Shown here: positions 21,001 to 23,125 of the stretch, one piece after another
Layout: each line of letters opens with the position of its first letter
Numbering within the stretch: position 1 is the stretch's first letter
Virus record (IMG/VR): IMGVR_UViG_2778261064_000008
Length of the DNA: 23,125 nucleotides
Strand: one strand, 5' to 3'
Origin: a virus
Lineage: Duplodnaviria > Heunggongvirae > Uroviricota > Caudoviricetes
Program-made: the position numbers

Positions 21001-23125
21001 AGCTCCTTTAGTTTCAGAATTCAAATTGTCTTGCCCGCAGGCTTTTCAGCATTGGCATGGCCCGCTGGATAACGGAACTTGACATGTCTAGACGTGTTAC
21101 CTCCCTCAGTAGCGCGTCTCTGTTCTTCGTCACCATGTAGATGGTCTCAAACGCAATGTCATACAGCTTGTTCGTGTATGAGGAGTTCAGCTCTTTCATA
21201 ATGGGATACAGGTGTTTGCTGATGTCCTGGGCTTTTTCCATCCAGAGCTGCATGTAGCAAAGGAGGATGATTTCCTCGGCTGTGAATTGTGGCTGAATCT
21301 GCGGCTGCTGTTCGGTTGGTGCTGTTTTTCCCTGGCTGAAATAGCAGTCTTCCAGTTTTTCGAATACTTCCCACGCCTGATCGGTTTCGAGCATTTTTGC
21401 GTGACGGGCTGCGCCGCGTTCTGTCCAGAGTATGAGCGAGCGGGCTTTCGGGGAAATTTGTAACCCTCTTAAAGATGGTTGCAAATTTTGTGAGTTACTT
21501 AAAGTAACCCGCAAATTTTTCAACTCATCACCAACAACCTTGAAAAAGTGTTTACCCTCAACAAAACGCTCGGAATTACGGGTGTAATTTACTTTGATGT
21601 TGTTGATCTCGGTACAGTAAAGCTGTGCCAGTAACTCGGTAGTGATAACGGGAATTTGGTTGTGTGTAATTGGGGAAAGAGTTTCGACAGAAATCTGAGT
21701 GGCCATAACGATAACTCCGTACATTTGGACATTATCGCCACCGTCAGGTGCTAATCATCGTGGTGGCGAACTGTGCGGGGTTAGCACTACCGGGTACGGA
21801 AACCGGCGAGCCTTTCGGCTCCCCCACACAGCCCGCCATAAATCGCGAATGTGACTGTGCAAACGATATGAAAAAAGACGCGGGCGCGTCTCATATCGCT
21901 CCGTAAACATCCGGGGTGCTAATCCCGACGCCAGATTTTGCTGGCGTGCGAAGAATATAATCCCGGATACGTGACGTTGTCAAACTGATGGCATTGCAGA
22001 TCCCTACACAATGTAATACTATGTGTTATACATTAATAACGGAACAAAAAATGCGCATTTTTAAAAACGCCTGGTTTGAGCGATTTGCACGCAAAAACAA
22101 AATATCCGACCAGTCACTGCGCGAAATTGTTAAACAGGCTGATAACGGGCTTATCTCAGCAAACCTGGGTAACGGCGTTATCAAGCAACGTCTGCCACGA
22201 GTCGGTGGCGGCAAATCTGGCGGTTATCGCACAATCATTTTCTATCGCGTCGGCACAAGGGCCTTTTTCGTATATGCATACGCAAAAAATGAACGTGAAA
22301 ATATAACCGCTACTGAGGAAAGTGCATTTCGGAAGGCGGCTCCTCACGTACTCAATCTAACAGATGAACAACTGGCACAACTGATTCTACAGGGTCAGTT
22401 TACGGAGGTACCCAATGAGTAAAAATTACCGCAGTGATGCGCTTGCATCCGTACATGAAATGATGGAATCGCTTCATGATATCGGCGCAGTAACGAAACA
22501 GACTATGCGAGAATTCGATGAAACTTGTCTCCAGCCAGCGCCGGTAATGTCTCCGGAAAGGATCCGTGCACTGCGCGAACGAGAGCATCTGTCTCAACCT
22601 GTTTTTGCCAGATACCTCAACGTCAGTAAAAACCTGATATCAGACTGGGAACGTGGTGTAAAACGGCCGGGAGGTGCCGCTCTTCGCCTTCTTTCAGTCG
22701 TAGAGAAAAACGGGATACAGGTAATATCATGATACTCCAATACAACAAAACCCGCCGAAGCGGGTTAAGTGCGGGTGCGTTGAGGATGCCTGACACATCA
22801 GAGGTGGCGAGGGATTTCTCCCTCGCCTGGTCTCTTACTCCTCAGGTTCGTAAGCTGTGAAGACAGTGACCTCCGTCTGGCCGGTTCGGATTCGTACCTC
22901 GCAGAGGTCTTTCCTCGTTACCAGTGCCGTCACAATGACGGTAATACAGATGACGATCAGGGCGACTAACATCGCCTTTTGCTGCTTCATAGCCTGCTTC
23001 TCCTTGCCTTTCGGCGCGTAAGAGGCTAACCTACATGTGTCTAGCATAAAATTGGCCTCAGATTAATGTTAGGCGTCTTGCAGGACGCGTAATGTTAACT
23101 GGGGCTTTTCTCTGTCTGCCTTACG

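Follow-up and report, generated by a model that had tools for sequence, protein, structure and literature searches.

The 23,125-nucleotide stretch of caudoviricete DNA recorded as IMGVR_UViG_2778261064_000008 (the window in what follows, meaning that whole stretch) carries two overlapping genes which very probably form an autoregulated, self-contained type II toxin-antitoxin operon of the HigBA2 kind, composed of a PF06296 toxin and a HigA2/YiaG-like antitoxin. The pair is an intact, ordinary add-on cassette in a lambda-like Escherichia coli prophage, where it adjoins a hok/sok locus. A preceding inspection of the letters alone (the sequence-only reading) had proposed a HigB2/HigA2-like pair inserted at the edge of the nin region and divergent from an antirepressor cassette; all of its checkable elements turned out as claimed, with small refinements. 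The pair is already annotated in RefSeq and belongs to a known family, and current understanding is not overturned; what is gained is a sharper annotation, in which a HigB2/HigA2 (relE-yiaG) pair with a defined predicted operator and predicted catalytic residues takes the place of the generic RefSeq labels 'RelE/ParE family toxin' and 'helix-turn-helix protein'.

Toxin, antitoxin and their relatives

Both genes lie on the plus strand, toxin first, and overlap by 8 nucleotides (nt), with the antitoxin ATG at 22415 and the toxin stop codon TAA at 22420-22422; the coordinates first read for the two open reading frames (ORFs) are thereby confirmed, and their order is the norm of the family. The toxin starts at ATG 22051, as all 31 aligned homologues open with MR(I/V)FKNAWFERF and as RefSeq uses this ATG in a strain whose copy is 100% identical. 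An ORF of 144 amino acids beginning at ATG 21988 was considered as the toxin and dropped, its extension spanning promoter and operator and being missing in homologues. Only GGA is found upstream of the toxin gene, whereas a strong GGAGG precedes the antitoxin gene, and this stronger Shine-Dalgarno sequence would favour antitoxin translation. The interval 21930-22732 originally assigned to the pair does contain both genes, but 21930-22050 is intergenic and its left portion, up to 21983, belongs to the neighbour, with the 5' end of the isrK RNA and the minus-strand promoter of the antirepressor cassette (Table 1).

The toxin matches Pfam family PF06296 ('RelE') over profile positions 1-120 of 120 (E 1.7e-46; 157.8 bits at a cut-off of 27), its sole Pfam match at E up to 0.01, with none to PF05015 or PF09907 (Rts1 HigB), PF05973 (Gp49) or PF05016 (RelE/ParE); the profile search thus upholds a HigB-2-type toxin and excludes the Rts1 HigB and Gp49 families. 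PF06296 includes HigB-2 of Vibrio cholerae and is a family in which the toxin precedes the antitoxin (PMC11980606), and a V. cholerae HigB-2 fragment of 56 residues passes the threshold of the family (30.2 bits versus 27). When the toxin was searched by sequence against the PDB, the five best matches were HigB-2 chains (E 0.003-0.007), and when its AlphaFold2 model (predicted local distance difference test, pLDDT, 78) was searched with Foldseek, V. cholerae HigB2 took PDB ranks 1-6 with probabilities of 0.98-1.00, HigB1, YafQ and ParE ranking behind at low probability. The residues R51, R64, Y82 and K84, which form the active site of HigB2 according to mutagenesis (PMC5416850), correspond in a HMMER alignment to R47, R60, Y77 and K79 of the window toxin, with R60 unchanged in all 32 homologues compared and R47 and K79 conserved at 90% or more. 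The glycine-rich and basic loop RVGGGKSGGYR, conserved and of low pLDDT, corresponds to the loop between beta2 and beta3 that is disordered in HigB2. HigB2 has its closest structural relative in RelE, which is similar in active site and cleavage pattern (PMC5416850).

By analogy, the toxin would be expected to be a ribosome-dependent mRNA endonuclease. Targets within the RelE/ParE superfamily are mixed (PMC11980606), HigB2 of Acinetobacter baumannii degraded free total RNA in vitro (PMC5906591), and position 77 is Phe in most homologues, so the toxin might conceivably attack something else than translating mRNA, such as DNA gyrase, which ParE targets, or RNA that it would cleave independently of the ribosome; this is nevertheless highly improbable, as the top fold and sequence matches are all to ribosome-dependent HigB2, ParE chains appear only at E above 0.4, and the Arg/Arg/Lys positions are conserved together with the loop.

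The antitoxin, an XRE helix-turn-helix (HTH) protein as first read, is composed of a conserved N-terminal segment (about residues 1-44) and a C-terminal XRE-HTH domain, which matches the Pfam profile HTH_3 (E 1e-7) and has HigA-2 as its nearest structure both by sequence and by fold. The three best matches of a PDB sequence search were HigA-2 (E 7.9e-8 to 4e-6, residues 45-99), and Foldseek with the AlphaFold2 model (pLDDT 86) placed HigA2 on top, with E 3e-5 for the full-length chain; the C-terminal domain superimposes on 5j9i with a root-mean-square deviation of 1.0-1.5 Å over 62-63 residues, a target-normalised template-modelling (TM) score of 0.81-0.85 and 35% identity. Residues 1-44, highly conserved in the alignment, are predicted to form two helices, and a weak match to the YiaG model PRK10072 extends over residues 13-99. 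Bicistronic relE-yiaG modules, in which the gene of a PF06296 toxin precedes that of an HTH protein resembling YiaG and having two helices at its N-terminus, have been described in silico only (Gerdes, 2025; PMC11980606), and the window pair probably belongs to this subgroup. While that work stresses toxins with extended, disordered N-termini, the window toxin begins at the conserved MRIFKNAWF.

The architecture recurs far beyond E. coli. In 80 related loci from other species of Proteobacteria, Cyanobacteria, Acidobacteria, Chloroflexi and Spirochaetes (76 with a usable upstream region), an antitoxin gene follows the toxin gene on the same strand in 77, the remaining three contigs stopping just past the toxin, and the genes overlap in 70 of these 77, the usual length being 23 nt (31 loci) or 8 nt (27 loci). 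Out of 1.84 billion representative proteins, 2,257 representative clusters belong to the family when E is limited to 0.001 and 902 when it is limited to 1e-10; tblastn located relatives on 349 plasmids, including those of Sinorhizobium, Acinetobacter, Piscirickettsia and Coxiella. Mean identity is 70.9% for the antitoxin versus 58.8% for the toxin, and it is the antitoxin, its N-terminal 44 residues included, that is more conserved in 75 of the 77 distant loci. Stronger conservation of the antitoxin, even in its presumed toxin-binding N-terminus, is the opposite of what is expected for type II pairs.

Among characterized systems, HigB-2/HigA-2 of V. cholerae (VCA0468/0469; PDB 5JAA, 5JA8 and 8A0X) provides the closest structures for both proteins. 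HigB2 is a ribosome-dependent mRNase which the N-terminal segment of HigA2 neutralises (PMC5416850). Shared with it are the PF06296 family, the overlapping toxin-first operon, the aligned catalytic Arg/Arg/Tyr/Lys positions, and an antitoxin in which an N-terminal segment, neutralising in HigA-2, precedes a C-terminal XRE-HTH dimer domain; the host element differs, being a lambdoid prophage here and the superintegron in V. cholerae. HigBA2 of A. baumannii plasmid pAB120 is another toxin-first RelE-superfamily pair with an HTH antitoxin and an RNase toxin, autorepressed with the toxin as co-repressor, devoid of an internal antitoxin promoter and stabilising a plasmid replicon (PMC5906591); plasmid-borne and less than 60% identical, it is likened to the window pair by description. 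HigB/HigA of Rts1 (Proteus vulgaris) and V. cholerae HigB-1 (PF05015) are alike in gene order and in being ribosome-dependent mRNases of the RelE fold, but they fall into a different Pfam family, whose HigB lacks the C-terminal helix and whose antitoxin is fully folded with another dimer geometry (PMC5416850). Gp49 (PF05973)/HTH pairs have the same toxin-first architecture with a toxin of a different family, whereas RelBE of E. coli K-12 (PF05016) is unlike the window pair in having its antitoxin, a ribbon-helix-helix protein, encoded first.

Promoter, operator and proposed mode of action

Between the antirepressor promoter and the toxin gene, the sequence-only reading had placed a TTGCAG-17-TACTAT promoter with an imperfect palindrome. 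Boxes and spacer are as stated, and the palindrome is real, with its register now rewritten as TGTAATACT-A-TGTGTTATA. It occurs once in the window, versus 0.01 occurrences expected by chance, and neither the surroundings of the antirepressor promoter nor any other part of the window contains a second copy. Its conservation extends across phyla: the core RYRC-N3-GYRY is present within 100 nt upstream of the toxin start in 70 of the 76 loci whose upstream region could be used, the background in the same loci being 0.147 per 100 nt, and mostly lies 26-43 nt before the toxin start codon. T-7 and A+7, which stand outside the search pattern, are each conserved in 69 of 72 sites, and the consensus reads T-R-T-M-A-Y-A-C-T-w-A-G-T-R-T-K-A-Y-A. 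Of these 72 sites, 27 have a TTG 27-30 nt ahead of the operator centre, most often at -29 (16 sites), which supports the -35 position of the promoter. Two layouts can be distinguished among the homologues, with TTG at -29 (16 sites) or at -15 (17 sites) from the operator centre; the window (-27) and the O157 copies (-30) follow the first. In either layout, operator and core promoter overlap. The -10 box of the window is putative.

The footprinted operator of V. cholerae, TGTACGC-N5-GCGTACA, is equally 19 bp long, begins after the -35 box and covers the -10 box (PMC11006873). Both systems thus have a single 19-bp inverted repeat over the -10 with the outer TGTA...TACA in common (PMC11006873), whereas the inner bases are AAYAC here and ACGC in V. 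cholerae. An operator of 19 bp found across phyla offers a handle on specificity change in repressors of the HigA2 type.

Several findings weigh against a close equivalence with HigBA2 or call for caution in the functional assignment. The toxin is just 24-28% identical to V. cholerae HigB2 and resembles it moderately in structure (TM 0.47-0.57), the antitoxin being 27-35% identical to its counterpart. Opposite the catalytic Tyr82 of HigB2, position 77 is Tyr in the E. coli clade only and Phe elsewhere, and Y75 on the same strand is near-invariant in homologues; the catalytic Tyr may therefore be Y75, or dispensable. The antitoxin N-terminus has two predicted helices where HigA2 has a helix and a strand, and its sequence is not similar to that of the N-terminal segment of HigA2, so the neutralising contact may differ. 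The base-reading residues of HigA2, R68, E71, N72 and R77 (PMC11006873), are replaced by N73, S76, D77 and V82, and another operator sequence is therefore to be expected; 22012-22030 is a candidate operator, predicted by conservation alone. The promoter is weak, matching the consensus at 7 of 12 positions, and was not picked up by a promoter scan. The toxin has no match to any defence model in PADLOC-DB v2, in which the antitoxin gives generic HTH matches only, and no model in NCBIfam, so that a catalogued defence system is unsupported; in PHROGs both proteins fall into families of 'unknown function' only. In the literature, no experiment on this pair or its E. coli subfamily was found, and the hokW-sokW paper is silent on a neighbouring type II pair.

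The preferred reading of an autoregulated HigBA2-type operon entails the following mode of action. By homology, a single transcript would start from the weak promoter around 21994-22022, and the antitoxin would be made second, from the much stronger ribosome-binding site. Free toxin, of the RelE fold, would enter the ribosomal A site and cut translating mRNA by means of R47, R60, Y77 (or Y75) and K79, unless bound and neutralised by the conserved N-terminal segment of the antitoxin, a function expected for this segment from HigA2. By the same analogy the antitoxin dimer would be expected to repress the operon at the palindrome, and as the palindrome covers the -10 box, the operon would repress itself. 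Once supply of the antitoxin stops, whether because the DNA is lost, an infecting phage shuts off transcription or induction brings antisense read-through out of the early operon, the labile antitoxin would be degraded and the toxin would arrest translation. The lability of the antitoxin is inferred, as is a role of the pair in addiction to the prophage region and/or in defence against other phages.

Toxin decay and cassette exchange

Among 43 E. coli and IMG/VR copies, a redundant sample that includes outbreak clones, the toxin gene is disrupted by several distinct lesions in 16, and the antitoxin gene is intact in every one; in the window neither gene is damaged. E. coli O104:H4 2011C-3493 and phage PhiR12_3 have in common a 1-nt deletion (window position 22093), the 90% cluster holds many truncated toxin alleles (for example 85 amino acids on 226 contigs and 68 on 174), and the exact antitoxin is found on at least 1000 contigs versus 272 for the exact toxin. 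Together with the higher conservation of the antitoxin in distant loci and the existence of YiaG of E. coli K-12 as a solitary relative (PMC11980606), these observations would suit an antitoxin that is useful alone, either regulating transcription or giving 'anti-addiction' protection from related toxins brought in by other elements, with the toxin a dispensable, decaying passenger. We consider this unlikely, as the window toxin is intact with every aligned catalytic position, 27 of the 43 copies are intact as well, pairing is usual elsewhere, and the sole operator-like site in the window lies at the pair's own promoter; moreover, any toxin-antitoxin pair is expected to decay by losing its toxin and keeping its antitoxin, and the copies were counted in a redundant sample. 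The natural toxin-dead alleles could serve as experimental controls.

That the pair is inserted, as had been proposed, is borne out on both sides. On the right, about 170 hok-bearing phages without the pair, including 933W and Sakai phages encoding Shiga toxin (Stx), align only from about 22744 rightwards, their similarity ending about 12 nt past the antitoxin stop. On the left, other E. coli prophages have only 54 nt next to the pair in common with the window, and in one of them, the otherwise syntenic prophage of E. coli G1/2, the same slot beside the antirepressor promoter is filled by a toxin-first pair of Gp49 (PF05973) and an HTH protein (2597-3224 of the retrieved locus), which indicates replacement of the cassette at a fixed junction just past the -35 box of the antirepressor promoter. 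The transfer unit comprises about 22000-22744.

At least 80% of the region is carried by 216 of 5,426 complete E. coli genomes (about 4%), on the chromosome in every case, and the pair may therefore be used as a prophage marker. The lineages include O157, O26, O103 and O104:H4. Copies at 91-100% identity have the isrK/antirepressor cassette on their left, while a second group (O157, O26, O103; about 85% identity), which is larger, is flanked on the left by unrelated sequence and is similar from the operator on. In the 43-copy sample, hok follows within 2.5 kb downstream in 31 copies, in 21 of them exactly 103 nt after the antitoxin gene, and an isrK/C4 leader lies about 100 nt upstream in 19; SLK172 carries the pair without an adjoining hok. 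Loci of the O104:H4 type contain a Doc/Fic toxin gene and a small upstream ORF between the HigA2-like gene and hokD (2011C-3493, 4852-5535 of the retrieved locus), and three toxin systems, hok/sok, Doc and HigBA2, thus stand side by side. In curated phage genomes, tblastn found the family in four records, of which the single one from E. coli is frameshifted, and the 38 IMG/VR loci are all 84-100% identical to the query, that is, of the E. coli type.

The antirepressor cassette next to the pair suggests a further possibility, namely a link between the pair and the prophage switch, through which the antitoxin or the toxin-antitoxin complex would control the divergent isrK/C4/antirepressor promoter and pass the state of the pair on to induction. 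The two promoters are indeed back to back, as first read, with 10 bp between their -35 boxes, and the leader recurs about 100 nt upstream in the 19 copies just mentioned. Yet the operator centre is about 40 bp from the -35 box of the neighbour and the operator overlaps the pair's own -10 only, the O157-type copies retain similarity only from the operator on, next to unrelated left neighbours, and the Gp49-type pair in the slot of G1/2 favours a neutral insertion site over co-adapted regulation, so that such wiring has very little probability.

On comparison of these sequences, the slot behaves as an exchange point for toxin-antitoxin modules, and the co-occurrence of up to three toxin systems together with the Gp49 replacement suggests that Stx-like lambdoid prophages have a hot spot here at which accessory modules recombine. 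A bolder extension, which we regard as unlikely, would make the slot between hok/sok and isrK/C4 a dedicated swap point for toxin-first RelE-superfamily modules (PF06296, Gp49, and in addition Doc) and the pair a device for defence or induction timing: as the pair is antisense to the early operon, anti-terminated early transcription upon induction, or else shut-off upon superinfection, would silence it, deplete the antitoxin and free the mRNase, and the frequent toxin-dead alleles with an intact antitoxin would confer immunity to such toxins.

The prophage neighbourhood

The placement at the edge of the nin region is sustained by NinB, NinE, YbcO, RusA and Q on the minus strand, and the divergent antirepressor cassette by an ORF6N/P22AR_C gene whose leader contains the isrK and C4 RNAs (Table 1). 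All neighbours are encoded on the minus strand, the early-to-late direction of the prophage; the pair is the sole plus-strand unit here and is antisense to early transcription.

Table 1. Features of the toxin-antitoxin cassette and its surroundings, in window coordinates
Feature	Position	Strand	Remarks
Q antiterminator	17342-17875	-	
RusA	17963-18325	-	
YbcO	18322-18612	-	
KilAC antirepressor	18612-19340	-	
ORF6N/P22AR_C antirepressor, cassette 1	19409-20092	-	
NinE	20370-20597	-	
NinB	20549-20959	-	
ORF6N/P22AR_C antirepressor, cassette 2	21014-21724	-	
C4 RNA	21759-21843	-	78 bits
isrK small RNA	21871-21947	-	73.5 bits
Strong divergent promoter of the isrK/C4/antirepressor cassette	21954-21983	-	TTGACA-18-TATATT; 11/12 consensus, promoter scan; left edge of the pair's cassette
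Putative sigma-70 promoter of the operon	21994-22022	+	-35 TTGCAG 21994-21999, 17-nt spacer, -10 TACTAT 22017-22022; read from sequence
Predicted HigA2-type operator	22012-22030		Imperfect palindrome TGTAATACT-A-TGTGTTATA; 19 bp, 6/9 pairs, overlaps -10
Toxin gene	22051-22422	+	123 amino acids; PF06296/HigB-2-type; intact; RefSeq WP_077168034.1
Shine-Dalgarno sequence GGAGG	22404-22408	+	6 nt before antitoxin ATG, within toxin gene; read from sequence
Antitoxin gene	22415-22732	+	105 amino acids; HigA-2/YiaG-like; RefSeq WP_000042397.1
G+C-rich hairpin AACCCGCCGAAGCGGGTT	22749-22766		Between antitoxin gene and hok; terminator-like on minus strand; right edge of the cassette
hok/sok type I toxin-antitoxin locus	22835-23125	-	hok 22835-22990, Pfam HOK_GEF E 2.9e-22; Rfam sok 71 bits

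The hok/sok locus converges on the antitoxin gene, with a mok-like ORF extending to 23047 and the sok match truncated at the window end. The hairpin between the two is the terminator of the hok transcript; on the plus strand it is not followed by a run of T, and it is possibly a weak stop for the toxin-antitoxin transcript.

Tandem leaders with isrK and C4 antisense RNAs, resembling immI of P1/P7 and IsrK of Gifsy-1, stand at 20146-20333 and 21759-21947 on the minus strand, one before each ORF6N/P22AR_C antirepressor gene. The prophage thus holds a duplicated RNA-controlled antirepressor cassette and a third antirepressor of the KilAC type. Further away, a strong match to the STnc100 small RNA family (143 bits) lies at 16805-17003 on the minus strand, between the Q gene and a SASA/DUF6645 esterase gene (14666-16630), at what we take to be the position of the stx genes in Stx-converting phages, and the prophage looks like an stx-less relative of these phages.

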